From: a virus
Lineage: Duplodnaviria; Heunggongvirae; Uroviricota; Caudoviricetes
Virus record (IMG/VR): IMGVR_UViG_3300021400_002728
Span: 1-37,153 of that record
DNA: 37,153 bases
Direction: 5' to 3' (one strand)
In this document: positions 9,067 through 20,537 of the stretch, one piece after another
Layout of the letters: each line of letters opens with the position of its first letter
Position numbering within the stretch: the first letter of the stretch is position 1
Translations under genes and position numbers: made by a program
Notes under the pieces: model-generated
Databases searched by the model: none
What the model saw: only the letters and a program-made list of their open reading frames with translations
Told to the model about the DNA's origin: nothing

Positions 9067-9315
9067 TTATTCGTTAAATTTTATTCCAGCTTTTTGTAAT
9101 GATTTTCGGAATTTCTTAATTGTCTTTTTAGTAGGTCTAGCTGCATAAGATGTCTTACTAGGAGTAGTTTTCAACATATCCAAACATAATGACATCTGTT
9201 CACTAGATACTTCACCTACACAAGGAAAGTCAACTTTAGGTAAGCTATTTACATCATTTAACAATCTATGAAAAGACATTCCCTGACCAACAACACCAAT
9301 AATAGGTTCTGACAT
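9067..9315 (-). CDS. hypothetical protein (82 aa)
   Basis: ORF packed 1 nt from the upstream gene, with an AAGGAG RBS. Confidence 0.7.
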   Translation of the reverse strand: MSEPIIGVVGQGMSFHRLLNDVNSLPKVDFPCVGEVSSEQMSLCLDMLKTTPSKTSYAARPTKKTIKKFRKSLQKAGIKFNE

Positions 9316-9316
9316 G

Positions 9317-9628
9317 TTATTCTCCTTCTATCTTTTTAGCTGTATCGTAGTTCTGTCCATTTTTAATAACCTTTTTCATATAATAAATAATTTCATCTAT
9401 ATTAGATGCTCTTAGAACTGCTATACGATCTTTATTCAGACGTTCTGCACTAATCTGATGAGAATCATTTCTGGCCTTAACTAATGCAGTAATAACTAGT
9501 TGTTGCGCCTTGGTTAATTTTGCTTCTACAAATAATGTAGTATCTTTCTTTATTTCTTCTATTTGCGGAAGTAATTCAATAAAGAGTGATGTTACACTAT
9601 TATCAACTTGAGACAGATCTTTCTTCAT
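9317..9628 (-). CDS. hypothetical protein (103 aa)
   Basis: ORF with AAGGAGA RBS. Confidence 0.75.
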   Translation of the reverse strand: MKKDLSQVDNSVTSLFIELLPQIEEIKKDTTLFVEAKLTKAQQLVITALVKARNDSHQISAERLNKDRIAVLRASNIDEIIYYMKKVIKNGQNYDTAKKIEGE

Positions 9629-9656
9629 ATATTCGGTTCTCCTTAATCAATAAGTA

Positions 9657-10490
9657 TTACCTATTCTTATTATGTCCTGCACCAGCCTTTTTAGCTTGTT
9701 TACGATTTTCTTTAGATTCTTTTTTATTAGGAACATGAGGTCGTTTAGCTAATTCAGCTTTAATAACCTTTACATTCATATTATGCTTTACTGTACATGA
9801 ATGTGACATACAGCATTCACAATAGTCAGTATAAAAATGTTGTCCATGTAACAATTCTAAAAGTTGTTTAGTATGATATTTCTTAAGTGTTTCTGGATTG
9901 ATTAAAGAACTACAATCTGCTATGTCTTTGTCGCGAATAGTATCAAATACAATAGATACCGCAGATTTTATACTTTTTTCAGTATAGTCATTATGAATAG
10001 TAGTTCTAACATTAACAGTTGTGAAATCTGGACTAGCAGAATCTCTCTTATCAAGATATTCTCTACTAATTTGATCTCTATCTATTACTTTTTTAATTCT
10101 GGTCTCTTCATCAGAAGAAACAAGAATCTTATATTCACATAACCACCAAAAGTCTGTATGAGGAAGTAAGATCCAATCAAGCACTACTTTATTACTATAA
10201 AGAGTATTCAAAATTTCTTTCTTCATATAATCATAAATACAGTCAGAAAGAGCTTTCATCTCATCTCTATTAGAGAATACAATATCACCAAGTCTCTTTC
10301 TGTCTACATGTCCATATTCATCTTCGATGTCAGGATATTTAGATTTAATTGTGTTGATAATTTCTGGTTGAAGAAGCGCTTTATGACCAATCTGATCAAT
10401 ATCTACATATTGATAATTAAGTCTTTTAGCTAATGCTTTCGCGAAAGTTGATTTACCACTACCAGACTTTCCTGTTACGCCAATTATCAT
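9657..10490 (-). CDS. coaE: dephospho-CoA kinase-like P-loop kinase with C-terminal extension
   Basis: IIGVTGKSGSGKST, VDIDQIGH and VDRKRLGDIVFSN motifs typical of CoaE. The last about 90 aa (Cys/His cluster, basic tail) are not CoaE-like. Confidence 0.8.
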   Translation of the reverse strand: MIIGVTGKSGSGKSTFAKALAKRLNYQYVDIDQIGHKALLQPEIINTIKSKYPDIEDEYGHVDRKRLGDIVFSNRDEMKALSDCIYDYMKKEILNTLYSNKVVLDWILLPHTDFWWLCEYKILVSSDEETRIKKVIDRDQISREYLDKRDSASPDFTTVNVRTTIHNDYTEKSIKSAVSIVFDTIRDKDIADCSSLINPETLKKYHTKQLLELLHGQHFYTDYCECCMSHSCTVKHNMNVKVIKAELAKRPHVPNKKESKENRKQAKKAGAGHNKNR

Positions 10491-10493
10491 TTA

Positions 10494-10679
10494 CTACCTC
10501 GCAAGTGAAGAACAAATAAGGTATGTTATACCTGTCGATGCTGCGTATATAAGTAAGAATAATACGATCATCGAAATTATGAATTTCTTTTTTGAAGTCG
10601 TCTTTTCAGGCTGTTCTGACTTATCAGTATTGTAATAAACTTCCTTATCTTTGACTTCTTCGTTATAAATATTTTTCAT
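10494..10679 (-). CDS. small membrane protein (61 aa)
   Basis: C-terminal hydrophobic helix; AAGGA RBS. Confidence 0.65.
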   Translation of the reverse strand: MKNIYNEEVKDKEVYYNTDKSEQPEKTTSKKKFIISMIVLFLLIYAASTGITYLICSSLAR

Positions 10680-10690
10680 CTTATTTTCCT

Positions 10691-11533
10691 TTATCCAAGA
10701 AGAGTATTAAACTCTTCCTCTGTAATTACCTTAATACCAAGATCCTTAGCTTTCTTAGACTTACCAGAAGTAGAGGTCTTGTCGTTACAAATGAGATATG
10801 TAAGATTCTTATTAACTCCAGCGATCTTACCGCCATTAGCTTCAATAATCTTAATCATATCTTCTCTCTTCATAGAGAGTGAACCAGTGATACAGAAGCT
10901 CATGTTATCAAGCTTACCACCAACAACTCTCTGCTTAACTGTAATGTAGTTAAGTACATCATTGATCTCAGAATAATTGAATTCAGCGATTACCTTTGCG
11001 GTAGTAGCACCAATACCGTTAATTTTAGTAAAGTCATAGCCAGTATTGACTGCATTCATGAAATCATCCCAAGTTGTAAAGGTATCTGCTAAAATGTTAG
11101 CTGTCTGCTTCTCAACATTAGGAATACCTGCAGAAGCAATGATCTTCCAAAGTTCAAGAGAGGTAGGAATACCTTCAAGAATCTTATCTACAGATCCTTC
11201 ACCATAACCTTTCATATGAACCCATTCATCTATATGATCTTTGAGTTTGAAGATGTCACTCATCTTGGTCAACCAACCAACCTTAATAAGATCTCTTACA
11301 GTTGCAGTGGACATAGATTCAATATCAAGTCCATGCGCGCCAATGAAATGAAGAAGCTTACCTTCAATTTTAGCACCACAATCAGGATTTGTACACACTA
11401 AAACTTCAGTATTGTACTTCTTCTCAATTCTTGTAGCACCACCACATCTAGGACAGGTAGTAGGAATCTGAATTGTCTGCCCATAAGCAGCTTCGATCTT
11501 TTTATCATTAACTTTCTTTAAGAGTGTGTTCAT
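10691..11533 (-). CDS. ligA: NAD+-dependent DNA ligase, C-terminal half (Zn finger, HhH repeats, BRCT)
   Basis: CPRCG...VCTNPDC zinc finger, LDIESMS / GYGEGS / GIPNVE / GIGATTA HhH-like repeats, and a BRCT domain (FCITGSL..KRED..IEANGG...LTYLICN...SGKSKKAKDLGIKVITEEEF). It has its own promoter and GGAGG RBS. Confidence 0.9.
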   Translation of the reverse strand: MNTLLKKVNDKKIEAAYGQTIQIPTTCPRCGGATRIEKKYNTEVLVCTNPDCGAKIEGKLLHFIGAHGLDIESMSTATVRDLIKVGWLTKMSDIFKLKDHIDEWVHMKGYGEGSVDKILEGIPTSLELWKIIASAGIPNVEKQTANILADTFTTWDDFMNAVNTGYDFTKINGIGATTAKVIAEFNYSEINDVLNYITVKQRVVGGKLDNMSFCITGSLSMKREDMIKIIEANGGKIAGVNKNLTYLICNDKTSTSGKSKKAKDLGIKVITEEEFNTLLG

Positions 11534-11565
11534 TGGTTGACCTCCATACTTTAATTTATGTAATA

Positions 11566-11600
11566 ATTATAACACAAGTTTATCTATTTGTAAATAGTTT
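11566..11600 (-). promoter_or_regulatory. phage early promoter, copy 5 (drives the ligase C-half)
   Basis: AAACTA-TTTACA-N17-TATAAT with TG extension. Confidence 0.85.
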
Positions 11601-12122
11601 TTAGACATACTTTTTAATTGCATATATATTAGTTGGAAGATATACTACATAAAGTTCATCATCAATATTAGTATTTTCATACAATTCTATTGACTCAGCT
11701 TGAGCTTTAACATTATCAAAACATATAATAGGTATTTTACTACGACGCACACCTACTCTACTACCGCTGTCGTCAATGTCTATATACTTGTTAGTGACAT
11801 AACCAACTCTATATTTGAATTTAAGTTTTCTAACTGATTCAATTTCTTCTACACATTTTCTATGCTGTTTTAATCCAAGATATACGAAAAGAATAACTAA
11901 TACTGTCATTATAGCCATTCCTACACAGTTAGATATTACATTATCACCTTGTAATACCCATTTAATACAACCAATATCTATAAGACAAAATATACCAGCC
12001 ATACAGAAAAAGAAGAATAATAGTAAATATCTCCACTTTGATCTATCTGCAAAGTCTTGAATTGTTTTCATTGCTTGATCATCAAATAATTCTATACCAT
12101 CATGTAAATCATTAATTTCCAT
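11601..12122 (-). CDS. two-TM membrane protein (173 aa)
   Basis: Two hydrophobic segments (YLLLFFFFCMAGIFCLI; VGMAIMTVLVILFVYLGL); GAGGA RBS. Confidence 0.8.
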   Translation of the reverse strand: MEINDLHDGIELFDDQAMKTIQDFADRSKWRYLLLFFFFCMAGIFCLIDIGCIKWVLQGDNVISNCVGMAIMTVLVILFVYLGLKQHRKCVEEIESVRKLKFKYRVGYVTNKYIDIDDSGSRVGVRRSKIPIICFDNVKAQAESIELYENTNIDDELYVVYLPTNIYAIKKYV

Positions 12123-12132
12123 ATGTTTATCC

Positions 12133-13215
12133 TCATTCTATAAGTTTTCCGTCTGAACCATATAAGACTATATCATTCTGGAATACCACCTCATCATCAG
12201 CAACGTCATTAATTATATATGGTACTTCTACAACATATGTATCTGATTTCATTGCACCAGTATGAATTGATGCCATACCATATAACTCTAAATTAGATAA
12301 ATCTCCAACATATTCAGCAGTAAAGTTTTTATAATCTAACGTATTATCTGATCCATCTATAGTATAAAATACATATGAAATATTACCACTAGCAGTATTA
12401 GTTTCAGAGTTTGTACCAAATGACGTTACAACTGTCCATAATTTATAATCAACTCCATCTACAACTACATCTTTAGCATTTTCGCGTTCAAAATCATCAT
12501 TAGCCCAGTCTATACCTAGATAATTTTTTGTAGCATCCGCTAATTTACTAGATCCATCTATAATAATAGATCCATCTTTAACACCTTCAAGTTCTTCTTC
12601 TGATGAAACAAAACCACTCATTCCTAGTAACATTTCTATATACATATCACGCATTTCATCATCTATAATTACTTTATTGTTTTCATCTAATTTAAGTTGA
12701 TCTAAACCCACGTATATAGTATCATCACCATTGCCTTCTGCCGCCGATATAGCTTTATCTACAAATTCCTGTATGTCGTGTGTAAAATATAAATCTACAT
12801 TCTGTTTAAATATTTCAGGATCAGTGCTCTCAAGTGAGGCAAACATTTCTTCATAGTTATTGGCGTGTAATGAAGCATATTTAAGAATTAAATATACATT
12901 ATTTAATGCATATGAACCATATTTATATTCCTCAAATCCAGTAGGTGCAACTAATGTTCCAATAAATGAATAAGGATCTTTTTCTTCTTCAACTGGCTTT
13001 TCTTCTTCAACAGGTTCCTCAATAGACTCTTCAGTCTCTTTAGTCTCTTCTTCTGATTCAGTTTCCTCAGGACCATTATATGCATATTTATGTTCTATAC
13101 TAACTTCTGGTTCAGGTTCTTCAGTAACAGGATTTACAAAATCATCGAGTGAAGTACAACCAGTTAGAGTAACAATTAATAGGCTGCATATAACAACTAA
13201 AAATCGTTTTTTCAT
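12133..13215 (-). CDS. acidic lipoprotein (about 360 aa)
   Basis: MKKRFLVVICSLLIVTLTGC signal peptide with an LTGC lipobox, then a Glu/Pro-rich linker. The ATG at 13215 follows GAAGGAGA and overlaps the upstream TGA. Confidence 0.82.
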   Translation of the reverse strand: MKKRFLVVICSLLIVTLTGCTSLDDFVNPVTEEPEPEVSIEHKYAYNGPEETESEEETKETEESIEEPVEEEKPVEEEKDPYSFIGTLVAPTGFEEYKYGSYALNNVYLILKYASLHANNYEEMFASLESTDPEIFKQNVDLYFTHDIQEFVDKAISAAEGNGDDTIYVGLDQLKLDENNKVIIDDEMRDMYIEMLLGMSGFVSSEEELEGVKDGSIIIDGSSKLADATKNYLGIDWANDDFERENAKDVVVDGVDYKLWTVVTSFGTNSETNTASGNISYVFYTIDGSDNTLDYKNFTAEYVGDLSNLELYGMASIHTGAMKSDTYVVEVPYIINDVADDEVVFQNDIVLYGSDGKLIE

Positions 13216-13817
13216 GTTTTCTCCTTCCCACATTTTATAGTCATATTTTTATCTATTTTATGAGTTATATAATAATCAATAATTTGTTTAGGAAAACCTT
13301 TGTTAGTAGAAAAGATCAATTCATATGTTTGAGCTCTACTATAACCTAACTCTTTCATATCTGCTGCAATACGTTTAAGTACTTCAATATAGAGAGGAAA
13401 TCTTTCTTCAACATTAGCAGAAACAATTTTATTCCAGTCTTCCTTTGTAGATTGTTCTATATAATTATCGTTTAGTTTGGTTATTAGTAATTTAGGACCA
13501 CCTTTAAAATAACCAAATAAATCGTCATTTTCATTATTAAGTTTTGCAATTTTAGCATGCAAGATTAAGTGTTCAATACGATTACAGTACACTAATCTAT
13601 CAGCTTTTTGATATTCAGGGTACTGTTTTTCAGCGCTCCTATTACTAAGTCCTGCAATTTTGTCTTCATCAATATGATGACATTCAAGACCTTCTTTAGT
13701 TCTAGACGCTAAGATCCGACCGTTAACAAAATAATCACTAGTGGCCGGGCCATACTTCTTTAATAGTACCTGAACATATTCGTTATAAGACATATTCCAA
13801 ACTTTGTTCAGTAACAT
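13212..13817 (-). CDS. HNH endonuclease-like protein
   Basis: GLECHHIDEDK...LVYCNRIEHLILH matches the HH...N..H pattern of HNH homing-type nucleases. Confidence 0.7.
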   Translation of the reverse strand: MLLNKVWNMSYNEYVQVLLKKYGPATSDYFVNGRILASRTKEGLECHHIDEDKIAGLSNRSAEKQYPEYQKADRLVYCNRIEHLILHAKIAKLNNENDDLFGYFKGGPKLLITKLNDNYIEQSTKEDWNKIVSANVEERFPLYIEVLKRIAADMKELGYSRAQTYELIFSTNKGFPKQIIDYYITHKIDKNMTIKCGKEKT

Positions 13818-13845
13818 ATTATTTTATTCCTTTATATCTTTCTAT

Positions 13846-13880
13846 AAAATAAAGGCGATAGCCTATATGGCCACCGCCTA
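13846..13880 (-). terminator. intrinsic terminator
   Basis: AGGCGGTGGCC-ATATA-GGCTATCGCCT followed by TTTATTTT. Confidence 0.8.
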
Positions 13881-13910
13881 TATTATTAAATAGCTTAAAT
13901 TGTTAAATTT

Positions 13911-14168
13911 TTAGATCTCGTTCTTCGGTGAAATCATGAAGTGTAACTTTCTGAATTTAACTATGTTTCTCTTTGTCAGAGCCTTACCGATCAGAACGTT
14001 TGCAACTACATTAACAGTAATAAGTGTACCGAACAGAATCACAAAGCTTGTCATACCAGTAAGATTTGCTACTGTGATGAAAACGATATATGATACCACA
14101 GCTACGATATTGGCAACTGATAACAGGTTAAACAGTACCTTACAAAATGTATTAAAATTTCTCTTCAT
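13911..14168 (-). CDS. two-TM membrane protein (85 aa)
   Basis: Two hydrophobic helices; AAGGAGGT RBS; single-gene unit behind the promoter at 14207-14241. Confidence 0.8.
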   Translation of the reverse strand: MKRNFNTFCKVLFNLLSVANIVAVVSYIVFITVANLTGMTSFVILFGTLITVNVVANVLIGKALTKRNIVKFRKLHFMISPKNEI

Positions 14169-14206
14169 AATTTTAATTACCTCCTTAGTAATTATTTTAT
14201 GAGATA

Positions 14207-14241
14207 ATTATATCATGAATTTTATAAGGTGTAAATAATTT
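14207..14241 (-). promoter_or_regulatory. phage early promoter, copy 6 (variant)
   Basis: AAATTA-TTTACA-N17-TATAAT with TGA extension. Confidence 0.8.
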
Positions 14242-14265
14242 TTTCAAAAATATTTTGAAAATTTG

Positions 14266-15909
14266 TTAAATTTTACTAATAATATCAAATACTGGATATG
14301 AGAAGTCTGTCTTCTTATATTTGAAATACTCCTCATCATTAGGTGCAAATAACCACCATCCACATTCTACATGAGCGCTAGTATCAGTTAAATCTATAAC
14401 CTGATATTCAAAATCTGAATTAGCTTCATACATCGAATATAAAGTTTCATTATACTGATCTACATAATGCTCGTATGACTGGACAACATAAACTTCTTCT
14501 AATGATGTTTCAGATGTAAAGTCTAAATCATATCCATCAATCAATACCGCTTTCTTAAAGTCTCCAACATTTAGATACTTATGAAAATCCCACGCGCCTA
14601 AACTAACTCCGCAATAATATAAGTCAGTATGTGGAAGTGAATCGACGACCTCTTTTACATAAGAGGACTTGATCTTACCATTATATCCATCTCTATAGAA
14701 GAACACTATTGTGCAGTCAGGCTCAATAGAACCATCTTGGATGTATTGGTAAAGTCCAGTTGTGTTGTAACTTCCATCAATTCCACCACCCATACCTGGA
14801 ATAAAGATCATAAGTGGTTTATTTGCAGGATCTTCAGGTACATAAACTCTATAGTTCTTATATGTATGGTTGAAAGCTTGTGATAAATAGTAGTATGCGG
14901 TAGATTCCTTAACTGAAGCTATGTCATGAATCTGGAATGTACATCCACCAGTTTTTCCTAAGATTCTACTATATCCATCATTATCCTGAAAATGCCACCA
15001 TTCAGATGCCAGACCGGTCATACCAGATTCAGTAAATATAAGATCTAGATTTATAGCATCTTCTGTCATAGTAGATACAAATTCACCACTACTTCCTGAA
15101 GTATACTTACATGACAATGTGCTTAACTCATGCATAGGACTCTGCATAGCTATTTCTTCTCTAGTCTCAATGTCAACCAAAGTTACGTCTAGTGCAGCTC
15201 CAGTATTATGAGTAGATGTTCCTTGTGCTAAGAACCAACCTTGTCCCCAACCATAAGATTTTCCATTATCAACTAAAGTATTGATATTTTGTTTAACTTC
15301 TGCATTTATATTATATAGAGCACCTAATTTCTCAGCAGCAAGAGTAGTTACTGATTTAGGTCTATATGAATCACAAATCATCAAAGAATAGTTAAAGCTA
15401 TGTGCGATATACTGAGCTTTAGCAACTTTCTTAGATGTACTATATAGCATTGGTACAGCAAATTCTTCATATCCAAGTCTGGAATTATAAACCTTACCTA
15501 AGTCATAAAGCTGTTCACCAGTTAGTTCTGGGATATCCTGTAATGACGACCGGTAAATCGAACTATATGCATTAGTAATATTATATTCAATTGATGGAAT
15601 GACATCTGGGAGATTTATGAAACACCATTTATGTTCTATAAATCCAACATCTTGTCCATATTGAACGCACCAATAATTACCAACTTTGCTTAAAATACAG
15701 AATGCATTTCCGGCTGAAACAGTAAAGATAGTTTTAGAATTAGCATTAGGTTGCTCTTTTGCTAACTGATCACAAGTTGACCAACCAGTTGCACCAATTA
15801 TGCTTTTCTCAAAATAATTCTCAGATTCTTCTGCATATACCTTTACACTAAAAATACCTACTACAATTAACATAATAATTATAGCAGGTATGATTTTTCT
15901 AAGTTTCAT
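14266..15909 (-). CDS. secreted VanX/M15D-type D-Ala-D-Ala peptidase fused to a C-terminal alpha/beta hydrolase
   Basis: Signal peptide ending VKVYA; SH3-like N-terminal segment; DSYRP, STHNTGAALD and EWWHF zinc-peptidase motifs; C-terminal IFIPGMGG and GVSLG (G-x-S-x-G). Confidence 0.8.
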   Translation of the reverse strand: MKLRKIIPAIIIMLIVVGIFSVKVYAEESENYFEKSIIGATGWSTCDQLAKEQPNANSKTIFTVSAGNAFCILSKVGNYWCVQYGQDVGFIEHKWCFINLPDVIPSIEYNITNAYSSIYRSSLQDIPELTGEQLYDLGKVYNSRLGYEEFAVPMLYSTSKKVAKAQYIAHSFNYSLMICDSYRPKSVTTLAAEKLGALYNINAEVKQNINTLVDNGKSYGWGQGWFLAQGTSTHNTGAALDVTLVDIETREEIAMQSPMHELSTLSCKYTSGSSGEFVSTMTEDAINLDLIFTESGMTGLASEWWHFQDNDGYSRILGKTGGCTFQIHDIASVKESTAYYYLSQAFNHTYKNYRVYVPEDPANKPLMIFIPGMGGGIDGSYNTTGLYQYIQDGSIEPDCTIVFFYRDGYNGKIKSSYVKEVVDSLPHTDLYYCGVSLGAWDFHKYLNVGDFKKAVLIDGYDLDFTSETSLEEVYVVQSYEHYVDQYNETLYSMYEANSDFEYQVIDLTDTSAHVECGWWLFAPNDEEYFKYKKTDFSYPVFDIISKI

Positions 15910-15935
15910 AATTTCCTCACTATGTCTGACTTGTA

Positions 15936-16424
15936 TTACGATTCACTCTCGTAATGATGCCTACGCAAAAACTTGACTATGTCATCAAGCATTTCATCTG
16001 CCTTTTCGATATCAGGTTTTGTAACATACAGTTCCTTATATCTACCTAAAGCAGACCATCTACATAACATAACTGAATAGCCAGTTTGTAGATCACTTAA
16101 AGTACCAGAAATTTCTCTTAATTCTGGATTTTTCTCTGATAAAGACTCTAGAAGCTTAGCATTGTTAGCTACAAAATGTCCTTCTCTAAAGTTTTCATAG
16201 TAGTATTTAATTAGACCTTTTAATGCAAGTTCAATAGCTTGTGCCAACATATAGCACGCCCAGTTAGTATCTGCTGCTTCAGCTTTATTACAATAAATAG
16301 AGTCTAATAGAGGCTCGGTTATATTCCGAGCCTTTATCGCATTTTGTATTAACATTCTACCTTCGTTTCGTAAGTCTTCATCACTTCTTTTAGGCGGACT
16401 GCCTTTGTGATGCGGCTTACCCAT
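15936..16424 (-). CDS. HEPN-domain protein (MNT-associated type)
   Basis: ACYMLAQAIELALKGLI...GH...RY pattern; overlaps the upstream MNT-like gene by 8 nt. Confidence 0.75.
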   Translation of the reverse strand: MGKPHHKGSPPKRSDEDLRNEGRMLIQNAIKARNITEPLLDSIYCNKAEAADTNWACYMLAQAIELALKGLIKYYYENFREGHFVANNAKLLESLSEKNPELREISGTLSDLQTGYSVMLCRWSALGRYKELYVTKPDIEKADEMLDDIVKFLRRHHYESES

Positions 16425-16728
16425 AGATAATGTCTCCTTTGCTAACTAGATCCATAATGTTGCTAGAGTTATTATTGCTGTTCAAAATAACAAGATCAAA
16501 TTTACCGTCAGTAATATCATCTACCTTACAGAAAAGATCAAGCAAAGCATTATCATCATCAGCTTCTTTCTGATTAGTCATTTGAATTGCGACTTCGAGA
16601 TAATCACTTTCTTTACACTCTTCTGTGATGCTTTTACCGAATACGATCATTTTGTTATATCGATCAGGATTCTCTTCGACATATTTCTTAATTGCATCAA
16701 CTTGTGATTGCTTAATAGGATTAACCAT
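16417..16728 (-). CDS. minimal nucleotidyltransferase (MNT)-like protein with a degenerate motif
   Basis: 103 aa; MIVFGKSITEECKESDYLEVAI resembles FGS....C...SDxD; FDLV near the C-terminus; paired with the HEPN gene. Confidence 0.65.
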   Translation of the reverse strand: MVNPIKQSQVDAIKKYVEENPDRYNKMIVFGKSITEECKESDYLEVAIQMTNQKEADDDNALLDLFCKVDDITDGKFDLVILNSNNNSSNIMDLVSKGDIIYG

Positions 16729-16731
16729 ACA

Positions 16732-16911
16732 TTACTCCTTATCTTTAGCCTCGATGTCAATTTCAATCACCTGACCATCTGTATAACCAAGTTCTTTAAG
16801 ACCTTCTTTCTGTACATAGATAGGTCCAATTAAGACTTTACCATCTTCAGGAACTTCCTGAAATCTGACAGTGTTTTTAGTTTCTTTTTCAAATTCGAAT
16901 GTTCTTTTCAT
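16732..16911 (-). CDS. small protein not in the ORF track (59 aa)
   Basis: MKRTFEFEKETKNTVRFQEVPEDGKVLIGPIYVQKEGLKELGYTDGQVIEIDIEAKDKE*; GGAGA RBS; fills the gap between its neighbours exactly. Confidence 0.8.
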   Translation of the reverse strand: MKRTFEFEKETKNTVRFQEVPEDGKVLIGPIYVQKEGLKELGYTDGQVIEIDIEAKDKE

Positions 16912-16919
16912 AGTGTCTC

Positions 16920-17105
16920 CTATTCTGATCTAAAATGCTTAAGATTCATTTGACCTATTCTCGTACCGTCCATAGAATAAGTAGTGACATACCATTCACC
17001 TTCTAAATCTCCCCAAGCAGTACTTAGATCAATCTTATATTTTGTGCCAATTTTAATTGCATCTGGCATAGATTCACGAATACTAATACAAATTACTGTT
17101 TGCAT
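16920..17105 (-). CDS. hypothetical protein (61 aa)
   Basis: ORF with AAGGAGA RBS. Confidence 0.7.
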   Translation of the reverse strand: MQTVICISIRESMPDAIKIGTKYKIDLSTAWGDLEGEWYVTTYSMDGTRIGQMNLKHFRSE

Positions 17106-17140
17106 AATTGAGTCTCCTTCTATAATTTGTAGTATCTTAT

Positions 17141-18079
17141 TTAGAACTCTGTGTCCTTAATAAAGGTAATAACAGGTGTATCAACATACTTAGCAAGAAA
17201 TCCTTCATTCTCAAATACAAGATCAGACTGTCTAATCTCTTCATTCTGAAGCTTTCTCATAACAAGCAGAAGATCCTGATTATTGAAGCACTTAAAATCA
17301 TAAGAACCATCAAACAGTTCCTTAATATATCCAATAATCTTATTATTCTTCTTAACTGCACTAAGTGTAAACTGCTCAACTCTAATAGGAACTTCTACTG
17401 TAGGAAGTACTTCTTCAATATGAGCAAGGATCACCAGAGGATTCTTATTTACATCGATAATAATCTCATCATTACTGAAGAATACTATACTTTCAATATT
17501 AATTCCAGCAGCTATCAGTTTGGTAAGAATAGTATCAGTAATATGTTTCTCGTATGTGATAACTCTAGAAGGATTACAGTTACCCATAATAACTTCTCTG
17601 ATGTACTTACTATTAACAATATACTCGCTATCAGTAAACTTACGAATAAAATCTTCCCAAGTATTAGCATTACCAAAGATAGTAGGATCATAAGCCTTAA
17701 GTGAACTGAAGTTTGCCTTCTTCATGTCAAGACTGATAAAAGCTTTACCAATAAATGAAGGCTTAAAAATATCCTTAGATGGAAGGTTCTTGTTCTTAAC
17801 TGCAAACTGATTCATGTCAAGCTTATTAAAGTTATTGAAACCTTCACTTGATTTAATAAAGTCCATTGCTGCTTCCTTAGTAGAATTGTACATAGCAAAG
17901 TATTCCTCTTCATTAGGAAACTTCTCTACTTCAGCACAGAAAGCCTGCCACTTAGACAAAGTATCATAGTATTTATCAAGCAGCTCAAGTCTTTCAGTGA
18001 AGTATGGTTCTGCATAGAGTCTAATTGGAATCTTGCAATCTCTCACAAATCTTTCTTTAAGCTTATCTGTCATTTTCAT
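17141..18079 (-). CDS. hypothetical protein with polymerase-palm-like acidic motifs (312 aa)
   Basis: FISLDMKKANFSSL and VFFSNDEIIID resemble motifs A and C of family-A-like palms; GGAGGT RBS. The CDS is certain, the function is tentative. Confidence 0.6.
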   Translation of the reverse strand: MKMTDKLKERFVRDCKIPIRLYAEPYFTERLELLDKYYDTLSKWQAFCAEVEKFPNEEEYFAMYNSTKEAAMDFIKSSEGFNNFNKLDMNQFAVKNKNLPSKDIFKPSFIGKAFISLDMKKANFSSLKAYDPTIFGNANTWEDFIRKFTDSEYIVNSKYIREVIMGNCNPSRVITYEKHITDTILTKLIAAGINIESIVFFSNDEIIIDVNKNPLVILAHIEEVLPTVEVPIRVEQFTLSAVKKNNKIIGYIKELFDGSYDFKCFNNQDLLLVMRKLQNEEIRQSDLVFENEGFLAKYVDTPVITFIKDTEF

Positions 18080-18111
18080 TGTATTTACCTCCAGGTTTTA
18101 TTAGTAAGTTT

Positions 18112-18146
18112 ATTATAACATAGTTGTCAACCATTGTAAATAGTTT
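18112..18146 (-). promoter_or_regulatory. phage early promoter, copy 7
   Basis: AAACTA-TTTACA-N17-TATAAT with TG extension. Confidence 0.85.
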
Positions 18147-18156
18147 CTAAAAATAG

Positions 18157-18190
18157 TTTAAGCCAGACCTATAAAAGCATCTGGCTTAAA
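18157..18190 (-). terminator. terminator-like hairpin
   Basis: Perfect 11-bp inverted repeat TTTAAGCCAGA/TCTGGCTTAAA, followed on the minus strand by CTATTTTT. Confidence 0.65.
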
Positions 18191-18224
18191 CATTTATGGA
18201 GGTATTTGAGATAATGATATAAGC

Positions 18225-18929
18225 TTAGTTAAAAAAGTACAACCAATCTTCTAATTCAGCTTGATACTTAATGTTTAACTTATTAAATTCATTAATATCA
18301 AGTCCTATTGCATTATTAGCACTAGCTTCAGCTTCCATATCAAAGTAAGCTCTTGAACGAAGATCATTATACTCATCATCAGAAATTTCTTCATCTTCTA
18401 ATTTCTGCCAAAGCTCATCAGAATATTTATAAAACTGTTTCATATCCTTGAGCTTCTGTTTTTCTCGTTTAGAACTCCAGTGTCTAACAAGATCTATAGT
18501 AACTTTTTTGTTTTTGATTAGATCATTATAACTTTGAGTTATTTCTAATACATGACCAAACTCATGTTTAAGTACTACTATACAAAAATCTACAAAATCA
18601 TCAGTATCATCTAACCTTTTACTTTGAGCTAAGGCATAAACAAGATTCAAATAATTCTCTACAGGAAATATAATTCTAAACTTAAGTTTATTATTTTTCC
18701 AAACAAATGTAGAATGCATAAACGAATGATAATAACTAGTATGATTATACTGTATAGTTTCCAACATCTGTTTATGTGTAAGCAAATACTGCTGATCAAA
18801 GTAATAATCTGATGTCAGAATCTCTTTAAAATTTCCCATAATAAACTCACAATTAGTTATATGGTACTGCTTGCAAAGATCTTCGTATATATTAGTTAAC
18901 TGATATTTTAAGTTAGTAACACTAATCAT
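18225..18929 (-). CDS. putative zinc metallopeptidase-like protein (HExxH)
   Basis: VLKHEFGHVLE plus a downstream EAEASAN acidic motif. Confidence 0.6.
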   Translation of the reverse strand: MISVTNLKYQLTNIYEDLCKQYHITNCEFIMGNFKEILTSDYYFDQQYLLTHKQMLETIQYNHTSYYHSFMHSTFVWKNNKLKFRIIFPVENYLNLVYALAQSKRLDDTDDFVDFCIVVLKHEFGHVLEITQSYNDLIKNKKVTIDLVRHWSSKREKQKLKDMKQFYKYSDELWQKLEDEEISDDEYNDLRSRAYFDMEAEASANNAIGLDINEFNKLNIKYQAELEDWLYFFN

Positions 18930-18938
18930 AAAATCACC

Positions 18939-20027
18939 TTACTTCTCAGCCTTTGCAATCTGAGGAATAATCATATTAGCACGAAAAACCCATATTTTCT
19001 GACCAATATATGGTTTTTCTCCAAGTAATTCTTTCATAATAGAAATATTATGCATTGATGCATTCTGAATAGTAGCACCCTCAATAACAACGGGTTTGAA
19101 TGTAGCAACAGGAGTGATAGCTCCACTCTTACCTACCGACCAAGTAATTCCAGTGAGTTCAGTTTCAAACAGTTCATCATAAAACTTGAAAGCGAAACCA
19201 CCACGGAAGGAATGCTCATCATGACCTTTTGCCATATAAGACTTGTAATCATTGATCTTGTATACCAGACCATCGATAGGGTACTTTTTAGCAGCAGATT
19301 TCTGTCTCATTCTTTCCTGCTGAGCTTCAAGGTTTTCAGTATTGGTATATTCCCAATCAACTGTCACAAACTTGAGATCTGCAAGTTTCTGAAGCTTAAC
19401 ATCCAGATCATCTTCACCAGTGATCATGTCCCATGCAACAAATGTAAGGCATCTTCTCTCGCACTCATCAGGATTGTCAAGTCTAATAGAACCTGAAGCA
19501 AAGTTTCTAGGATTCTTGAACATACTAGAAAATTCTTCGAAGTCATCATACTTACAAATAACTTCACCATCAATTACGATAGTATCTTTAACTGCAATAG
19601 TCTTAGGAATAGACGGAAGTCTTTTTGCATTTTCTGTAATATCTTCACCAACAGTTCCATTTCCACGAGTTTCAGCAGATACGAGCTTACCATTCTCATA
19701 CTTGAGAGAACAAGTAAGTCCATCCATCTTCAACATAGTGATTGACTTTTCCTTAAGCCACTTCTTAAGAACTGCAGGATCTTTGGTCTTATCAAGAGAA
19801 AGCATCAAGTGGTTATGAGTAACCTTCTTGAGTTTATTCTGAATATCAAACTGAATTGTAGCTGAAGGAGACTTAGGATCAACATAACCAGTCTCTTCTT
19901 CATATGCACAACACTCAAAATACAACTGATCCCATGCTTCATCGCTGATCTCAGGATTTCCTTCGTCATACTTCTTAGTGTAGTAATTCAGCTTCTCAAT
20001 ATTCGCTGTATATTCTTCTCTTGTCAT
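18939..20027 (-). CDS. ligA: NAD+-dependent DNA ligase, N-terminal half (domain Ia, adenylation domain, OB fold)
   Basis: YDEGNPEISDEAWD (domain Ia), HLMLSLDK, MLKMDGL (KxDG), TRGNGTVGED, IDGEV, NPRNFASG, IDGLVYK, AFKF, VGKSGAITPVA, ASMHN, RANMIIPQI. It ends in TAA right after the OB fold. The ATG at 20027 follows GGAGG. Confidence 0.93.
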   Translation of the reverse strand: MTREEYTANIEKLNYYTKKYDEGNPEISDEAWDQLYFECCAYEEETGYVDPKSPSATIQFDIQNKLKKVTHNHLMLSLDKTKDPAVLKKWLKEKSITMLKMDGLTCSLKYENGKLVSAETRGNGTVGEDITENAKRLPSIPKTIAVKDTIVIDGEVICKYDDFEEFSSMFKNPRNFASGSIRLDNPDECERRCLTFVAWDMITGEDDLDVKLQKLADLKFVTVDWEYTNTENLEAQQERMRQKSAAKKYPIDGLVYKINDYKSYMAKGHDEHSFRGGFAFKFYDELFETELTGITWSVGKSGAITPVATFKPVVIEGATIQNASMHNISIMKELLGEKPYIGQKIWVFRANMIIPQIAKAEK

Positions 20028-20064
20028 TGATAAGACCTCCATACATTTGATTTATTATGTATTT

Positions 20065-20099
20065 ATTATAACATGAAATACACAATTTGTAAATAGTTT
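20065..20099 (-). promoter_or_regulatory. phage early promoter, copy 8 (drives the ligase N-half)
   Basis: AAACTA-TTTACA-N17-TATAAT with TG extension. Confidence 0.85.
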
Positions 20100-20537
20100 T
20101 TACTCAATTCTTAAACCAACTTCTGTATTAGCAAATAAATTAACCCCAAATTTAGACATTCTAGTATCTCTATAAAGTCTATATGCGTCTGTTCCAGCAG
20201 GTAATCTAGAATCAATAGTACCTAACTGAATTTCAGGAATATCTTCAAGTTCTACATTAAAACCAGGCATTTCTATTAGTCGTTTCATATTGCTTTCAGA
20301 AGTTTCCCACAATGCGGATGTATTTATATACATATTTACTATAAATTTTATAGCTATATCATATGCCATAAAATCACCGAAAATAGTATCAGCATCAAGT
20401 TTATGAATTACTGCGCAATGTAATTTTGTAGTACCACCTTGGTCATCTGCACTACGCACGGTAATTTCTACTTTTTCACTACCAAAATGAGTATCAGAGA
20501 AAATAATCTGCGCGCTTGTTTGTTTTGTAATTTCCAT
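20100..20537 (-). CDS. hypothetical protein (145 aa)
   Basis: ORF with AAGGAG RBS. Confidence 0.75.
   Translation of the reverse strand: MEITKQTSAQIIFSDTHFGSEKVEITVRSADDQGGTTKLHCAVIHKLDADTIFGDFMAYDIAIKFIVNMYINTSALWETSESNMKRLIEMPGFNVELEDIPEIQLGTIDSRLPAGTDAYRLYRDTRMSKFGVNLFANTEVGLRIE

Follow-up and report, generated by a model that had tools for sequence, protein, structure and literature searches.

The window analysed here (37,153 nucleotides) is the first 37 kb of IMGVR_UViG_3300021400_002728, a complete 394,266-bp IMG/VR phage record with direct terminal repeats. Its G+C content is ~31%, and nearly all of its genes lie on the minus strand. The sole DNA ligase found in this 394-kb giant gut/rumen phage is encoded by two conserved, separately promoted genes located 7.4 kb apart. 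A first-pass annotation, made from the sequence alone, had described a nicotinamide adenine dinucleotide (NAD+)-dependent ligase divided in this way, and the observation is real; the mechanism is ordinary, and the novelty lies in the gene arrangement and its evolutionary history. A description of a split NAD+ ligase with non-adjacent genes was not found in the literature searched, and megablast comparison of the 10.5-kb region with cultured phages returned no match. We favor, with a probability of about 0.78, the reading that the two genes encode the subunits of one heterodimeric NAD+ ligase assembled in trans, and that the ligase was split once in the ancestor of a phage clade in association with an endonuclease, with later growth of the gap between the halves.

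Two genes with the domain content of one LigA

The two ligase genes, hereafter the N-half and the C-half, are as follows.

18939–20027, minus strand: ligase subunit A gene (N-half), 362 amino acids (aa); domain Ia, adenylation (NTase) domain and OB fold; assigned by Pfam, alignment to LigA in the Protein Data Bank (PDB), NCBIfam and conserved motifs
10691–11533, minus strand: ligase subunit B gene (C-half), 280 aa; 18-aa N-terminal tail, Cys4 Zn ribbon, HhH and BRCT; assigned by Pfam, PDB alignment, an AlphaFold2 model and cysteines

The N-half matches PF01653 (DNA_ligase_aden, 6e-42) and PF03120 (DNA_ligase_OB, 8e-19) and aligns with residues 1–390 of Thermus filiformis LigA. Its longest open reading frame (ORF) opens at 20042; the start was placed at the ATG at 20027 (MTREEY), 8 nt after a GGAGG, and all members of the clade start with an MTREEY-like sequence. 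The protein ends in ...IIPQIAKAEK, followed by a TAA stop. The motifs KMDG, DGE, DGLVYK and AFKF are present, and K100, D153-G-E155, D252-G253 and K281 do not vary within the clade. Domain Ia of LigA aligns with the first ~65 aa of the N-half, among them the clade-invariant residues Y20, D29, W32 and D33, which we take to correspond to E. coli Y22, D32, Y35 and D36. On this alignment, the N-half has a predicted domain Ia, the part that binds nicotinamide mononucleotide (NMN) and gives NAD+ specificity.

The C-half aligns with LigA residues 398–655, its HhH and BRCT domains are recognized by Pfam, and the four cysteines of its Zn ribbon are invariant across the clade. The AlphaFold2 model has a mean pLDDT of 84.8, with a low-confidence N-terminal tail of 14–17 residues, and resembles DNA-bound E. 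coli LigA as well as chain B of PDB 9hu3, the heterodimeric DNA ligase of phage PR1 with nicked DNA. The domain assignments of the first-pass annotation therefore hold for both genes. It had also described about 20 novel residues at the start of the C-half; an 18-aa extension does exist, but it is confined to the subclade of the window and a relative designated L002 (L and P numbers are our own handles throughout), and the tail is 3–4 aa in most relatives.

The halves are complementary in domain content, as had been proposed. Of the 664 positions of the NCBIfam LigA equivalog NF005932, the N-half covers 2–383 and the C-half 393–664, with no overlap and a 9-position gap. The summed score of the halves (403 bits) exceeds the 369-bit cut-off, and each half alone falls below it. 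No LigA domain is missing: OB, the Cys4 Zn finger, HhH and BRCT follow one another as in LigA, divided between two chains. The pair thus has every domain and catalytic motif of bacterial LigA, which is a single chain of ~670 aa, whereas the enzyme of the window would consist of two polypeptides. One adenylation-domain match and one C-half match were found in the complete 394-kb genome, and a search of the same genome for an ATP-dependent ligase domain gave no hit.

The split is present in eight phage genomes (the window and seven relatives), always with the N-half before the C-half and on one strand. The distance between the halves differs among them as follows.

L007: gap of 0.7 kb
L014: gap of 0.9 kb
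L003: gap of 4.6 kb
L015: gap of 5.4 kb
Window: gap of 7.4 kb
L006: gap of 7.5 kb
L002: gap of 8.6 kb
L034 (complete 467-kb genome): gap of 14.8 kb

Stand-alone C-half proteins of 258–286 aa form more than 110 clusters at 90% identity, on contigs of up to 532 kb. Proteins of ~380 aa consisting of the N-half only (P0134, P0152, P0156 and others) were also found; their contexts were judged indirectly, via IMG/VR loci, and most close relatives of P0134 and P0156 among those loci are fused. The ratio of nonsynonymous to synonymous substitution rates (dN/dS, Nei-Gojobori) is 0.09–0.155 for the N-half and 0.13–0.25 for the C-half. Both halves are under purifying selection, and a ratio near 1, which the first-pass annotation had named as the mark of a decaying gene, is seen in neither.

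Separate promoters and proposed assembly in trans

Expression signals were located at both genes and in the spacer between them.

20065–20093, minus strand: N-half promoter, TTTACA-17-TATAAT with TG, followed by the leader GTATGGAGGTC, which contains the ribosome-binding site (RBS)
11566–11594, minus strand: C-half promoter of the same class as that of the N-half, with an identical leader GTATGGAGGTC
13853–13879, minus strand: intrinsic-terminator-like hairpin within the spacer, with an 11-bp stem and a T run

A TTTACA-N17-TATAAT promoter (extended -10) and a GGAGG RBS precede each half, in agreement with the initial description. The -35 block is exactly alike in both promoters, and the GTATGGAGGTC leader is found in the window at these two places only. 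Four strong minus-strand promoters belong to the class ACTATTTACA-N17-TGnTATAAT (20093, 18140, 14235 and 11594). Because each half has its own promoter and the terminator at 13879–13853 lies between them, the halves belong to different transcription units. In seven of the eight genomes, both halves are preceded by a promoter of the ACTATTTACA-N17-TATAAT class, 57–68 nt before the ATG. The C-half promoter of L007 overlaps the end of an endonuclease gene, and the promoter class is kept there though only this gene separates the halves. Judged by their promoters, both halves are co-regulated.

In the proposed mechanism, subunit A (Ia-NTase-OB) would contribute the adenylation lysine and the NMN-binding domain, and subunit B (Zn-HhH-BRCT) the DNA-binding clamp. 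Both would be produced simultaneously from one promoter class and would then assemble non-covalently around nicked DNA. PDB entries 9hu3 and 9i5i contain the heterodimeric ligase of PR1, a T5-like phage, on nicked DNA, and that enzyme is cut in the same linker between the OB fold and the Zn finger (OB–Zn linker). By analogy with the PR1 heterodimer, we infer that the window pair assembles and seals nicks. A heterodimer formed in trans, with its break after the OB fold, had already been suggested from the sequence; selection on both halves, congruence of their trees, the common promoter class, the lack of other ligase parts in the genome and the PR1 linker all support it.

An alternative is that the halves are functionally independent, subunit A acting alone or with a host factor and the Zn-HhH-BRCT protein serving as a nick or DNA-end binder or as a modulator of host LigA. 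Such independence would fit the terminator that divides their transcription units, as well as a distance between the halves that varies freely from 0.7 to 14.8 kb and a weak match of the BRCT region to the anti-phage protein GapS2. We nevertheless regard independence as improbable, since the N- and C-domain trees are congruent, the halves always occur together and in constant order, the promoter class is common to both in seven of the eight genomes, and the genome has no other ligase part. LigA domain-deletion work also counts against it: Ia-NTase-OB fragments self-adenylate and seal nicks poorly without Zn/HhH.

If the heterodimer reading is correct, neither gene adjacency nor co-transcription would be necessary for a two-chain NAD+ ligase. 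A comparable arrangement is known for another enzyme: the minimal Pol III alpha of jumbo phages is encoded by two distantly located genes (Iyer et al., 2021, PMC7824862). It too is a replication enzyme made as two stand-alone proteins from non-adjacent genes, although the enzyme is a different one. The same review describes NAD+ ligases in jumbo phages and does not mention a split (PMC7824862). For annotation, stand-alone "BRCT/HhH proteins" and "truncated ligases" of giant gut phages would be read as ligase subunits B and A, respectively.

Beyond the ligase genes, a promoter class of the form AAAAACTATTTACA-N17-TG(T/A)TATAAT occurs at at least nine minus-strand sites in the window (e.g., 1052, 4358, 7094, 8476, 11587, 18133, 20086, 27175 and 32108). 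It precedes many minus-strand genes and is kept at the ligase genes of relatives whose N-half identity is as low as ~63%.

Origin of the split and the endonuclease at the break

An exhaustive profile-free search with the N-half retrieved, after the clade's own P0122 (61% identity), full-length ligases of 630–660 aa as its best matches (46–53% identity). These fused relatives lie in phage contexts, and all of the close ones are single ORFs. In the N-domain tree the split clade is monophyletic, with a Shimodaira-Hasegawa-like approximate likelihood ratio test (SH-aLRT) support of 96; the fused L009/P0124 and P0148 group with it as sisters (98), and a branch of 3.3 leads to T5 subunit A. The internal topology is repeated in the C-domain tree, where fused P0148 is again the sister. 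The agreement of the two trees indicates that the halves co-evolve and, given the fused sister, that they descend together from one fused gene. Fused relative L009 also shares neighboring genes with the window, namely an SNF2 helicase (52% identity) and a 440-aa protein (50%).

The trees point to a single origin of the split in this clade, independent of the split in T5. The two-subunit NAD+ ligase of T5 is well established, with ligA and ligB listed in PMC3632103. Like the window pair, the T5-type enzyme consists of an NTase-OB chain and a Zn-HhH-BRCT chain with the break in the OB–Zn linker, and its mechanism is presumed alike. In T5 the genes are adjacent, as the first-pass annotation had noted (the T5-type pair is ~200 bp apart in phage rokbiter), whereas here the genes belong to different transcription units with 7.4 kb between them, and the split is of independent origin.

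Horizontal acquisition of a ready-split ligA/ligB pair from the T5 group, with only the separation of the genes being new, would account for a breakpoint in the same OB–Zn linker. It would also account for the cultured-phage collection, where T5-like subunit A makes up most of the N-half matches among those listed. T5-like subunits are, however, only 33% (A) and 22% (B) identical to the window proteins, and more than 150 clusters, mostly of fused ligases, are nearer. Both trees give fused phage ligases as the sister group, which argues against common descent with the Demerecviridae split. We consider such a transfer very unlikely.

A GIY-YIG homing endonuclease gene occupies the gap in five of the eight genomes (L002, L003, L006, L007 and L034). 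In L002, L006 and L007 the gene begins at the N-half stop or directly behind it and encodes 210–237 aa with an I-TevI/NUMOD-like DNA-binding tail; the protein matches TIGR01453 ("group I intron endonuclease") at 7e-14. The L034 homolog (246 aa) starts ~200 nt later, and that of L003 lies mid-gap. Phages L002 and L006 share 89–99% identity across the endonuclease gene and the final ~100 nt of the N-half, compared with 65–80% elsewhere. This co-conversion tract is a signature of homing and indicates that the endonuclease is mobile. Between L002 and the window, its closest relative, identity over the last ~110 nt of the N-half falls from ~0.87 to 0.76 to 0.56.

The fragmentation of phage genes by endonucleases is already known (PMC3045599; PMC12880540). 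In Aeromonas phage Aeh1, a free-standing homing endonuclease has split nrdA into nrdA-a, mobE and nrdA-b (Crona et al., 2010, PMC3045599). The ligase resembles that case in being an essential replication enzyme encoded by two translated genes, with a mobile endonuclease at the break in L002, L006, L007 and L034; in both, close relatives keep a fused gene and new terminal tails have appeared at the break. Unlike Aeh1 nrdA, the window has no copy of the endonuclease, and several genes now form an island in its gap. By analogy with the Aeh1 NrdA tails, assembly may be aided by the 18-aa tail found in the window/L002 subclade.

Fused orthologs (L009 and P0148) and differently split ones (L060 and L046) were both found, so the comparison proposed by the first-pass annotation could be made. 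Phage L060 was split independently: its halves are separated by 0.9 kb, a GIY-YIG ORF lies between them, and the ligase of its sister L062 (99 in the C-domain tree) is fused. The GIY-YIG ORF (L060:6935-7645) contains nine in-frame stops, all of them TAG, and the flanking ligase halves end in TAA and TGA; either TAG would be read as sense in this phage or the endonuclease would be gated by amber codons. Phage L046, whose sister is the fused P0162, is also independently split; the 227-aa ORF in its gap (9107–9790) has no family match and overlaps both halves, and it may represent a new type of endonuclease.

A junction alignment places all breakpoints, that of T5 included, within 5–15 residues between ...IIPQ(I/V)... 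and IPTxCPxC. Phage evolution has placed at least four separate cuts in the OB–Zn linker (in T5-like phages, this clade, L060 and L046), and the linker would therefore be a natural "safe" split point, of use for engineered split ligases.

The history we propose for the heterodimer begins with a fused phage ligase of ~650 aa, which was split once in the ancestor of this clade of 250–530-kb gut/rumen phages. This event would have been independent of T5, yet within the same linker of 5–15 residues. An I-TevI-like GIY-YIG endonuclease, present at the break in most relatives and still mobile between lineages, probably caused the original split; at the least, it makes use of the site. With a promoter, RBS, start and stop for each half, the genes would no longer have had to be neighbors, and the gap could then have gained an MNT-HEPN pair, a peptidase and genes of no known family to reach 7.4 kb here and 14.8 kb in one relative. 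In the window the endonuclease would have been either lost or never have arrived. The relatives form a series: the gene is fused at one end, next interrupted by nothing but an endonuclease, and at the other end divided into halves with 15 kb between them. Such a series would illustrate the seeding of variable gene islands by selfish endonucleases in giant phages.

Several points weigh against this account. The gap endonuclease was found neither in the window nor elsewhere in its genome, whose three GIY-YIG genes outside the gap are unrelated to it; L014 and L015 lack it too, and since L015 is basal, the split may have come first and the endonuclease later. The trees come from a quick search with SH-aLRT support only, and many of their deeper nodes are unresolved. 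As for catalysis, the motif IV lysine (DGLVYK/R), which presumably corresponds to E. coli K290, is kept in the window and replaced by arginine in four of nine aligned N-halves (L014, L007, P0122 and L015).

Rejoining of the halves into a single-chain ligase by a split intein, trans-splicing or a group I intron is a further alternative, given that genes of giant gut phages are often interrupted by introns and inteins (PMC12880540). The first-pass annotation had seen neither an intein nor an intron, and the searches agree. A Pfam search of the halves found no Hint/intein domain, and no intron or other Rfam family reached threshold in 10400–20300, where nothing matched up to E = 1 except a sub-threshold L20-leader. 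The tails at the break are short: the N-half stops 3–5 residues past the OB fold, and the C-half leads with 3–18 aa. At 18 aa in the window and 3–4 aa in most relatives, the C-half tail is too short for an IntC segment. Promoter, RBS and start are separate for each half, and a terminator intervenes. Rejoining is therefore highly improbable.

Least credible of all are an artefact of assembly and a pair of decaying pseudogenes. The genome was assembled from a metagenome, but mis-assembly is excluded because eight separate assemblies from different samples carry the split in the identical N-then-C order. As to decay, dN/dS is well below 1 for both halves, and the catalytic and Zn-binding residues are invariant.

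Contents of the gap

The first-pass annotation had counted eleven genes between the halves, and the count stands at 11 ORFs of at least 59 aa. Only three of the 11 have a recognizable family (HEPN, MNT-like and D-Ala-D-Ala-peptidase-like). The features of the spacer are as follows.

11534–18938, minus strand: spacer of 7,405 nt containing these 11 ORFs; variable accessory-gene slot
18225–18929, minus strand: 234-aa ORF with no assigned function, 9 nt downstream of the N-half stop, at the place of the relatives' GIY-YIG gene
15936–16728, minus strand: overlapping pair of an MNT-like gene (103 aa, 16417–16728) and a HEPN gene (162 aa, 15936–16424; HEPN Pfam 3.7e-8)
14266–15909, minus strand: D-Ala-D-Ala-peptidase-like (M15 peptidase-like) protein, 547 aa

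The 234-aa ORF was considered as a degenerate GIY-YIG gene and rejected, as it has no similarity to the endonuclease of the relatives. From its sequence, the MNT-HEPN pair looks like a toxin-antitoxin module, and it is homologous to the Polbeta-NTase and HEPN pair that is the sole gap cargo in L014. Of all the cargo in the spacer, this pair is conserved best. Comparison with PHROGs gave one sub-threshold match for a spacer protein, and PADLOC gave no match for any spacer protein, the MNT-HEPN pair included.

Gene-family clustering of the eight gaps identified only two recurrent cargoes, the endonuclease (five of eight) and the MNT-HEPN pair (window, L002, L006 and L014); the remaining cargo is lineage-specific. 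We tentatively suggest, as a possibility that falls short of an even chance, that the ligase break acts as a protected insertion hotspot. Retention of both halves would fix the flanks, the endonuclease would reopen the site, and accessory or conflict genes would accumulate to ~15 kb; the C-half tail would then be an assembly handle made by insertion, as in Aeh1 NrdA.

In the window the M15 peptidase-like protein has 547 aa, and its counterpart in the closest relative is an ORF of only 181 aa (L002:15262-15807), suggesting that this spacer cargo is undergoing truncation or remodelling. In L003 (13531–15524), a Polbeta-nucleotidyltransferase gene (123–133 aa) and a 202-aa gene are present in two tandem copies just upstream of the C-half; this pair differs from MNT-HEPN. 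Outside the gap, two genes downstream of the C-half, the window encodes a dephospho-CoA-kinase-like P-loop kinase of 277 aa (9657–10490, minus strand).

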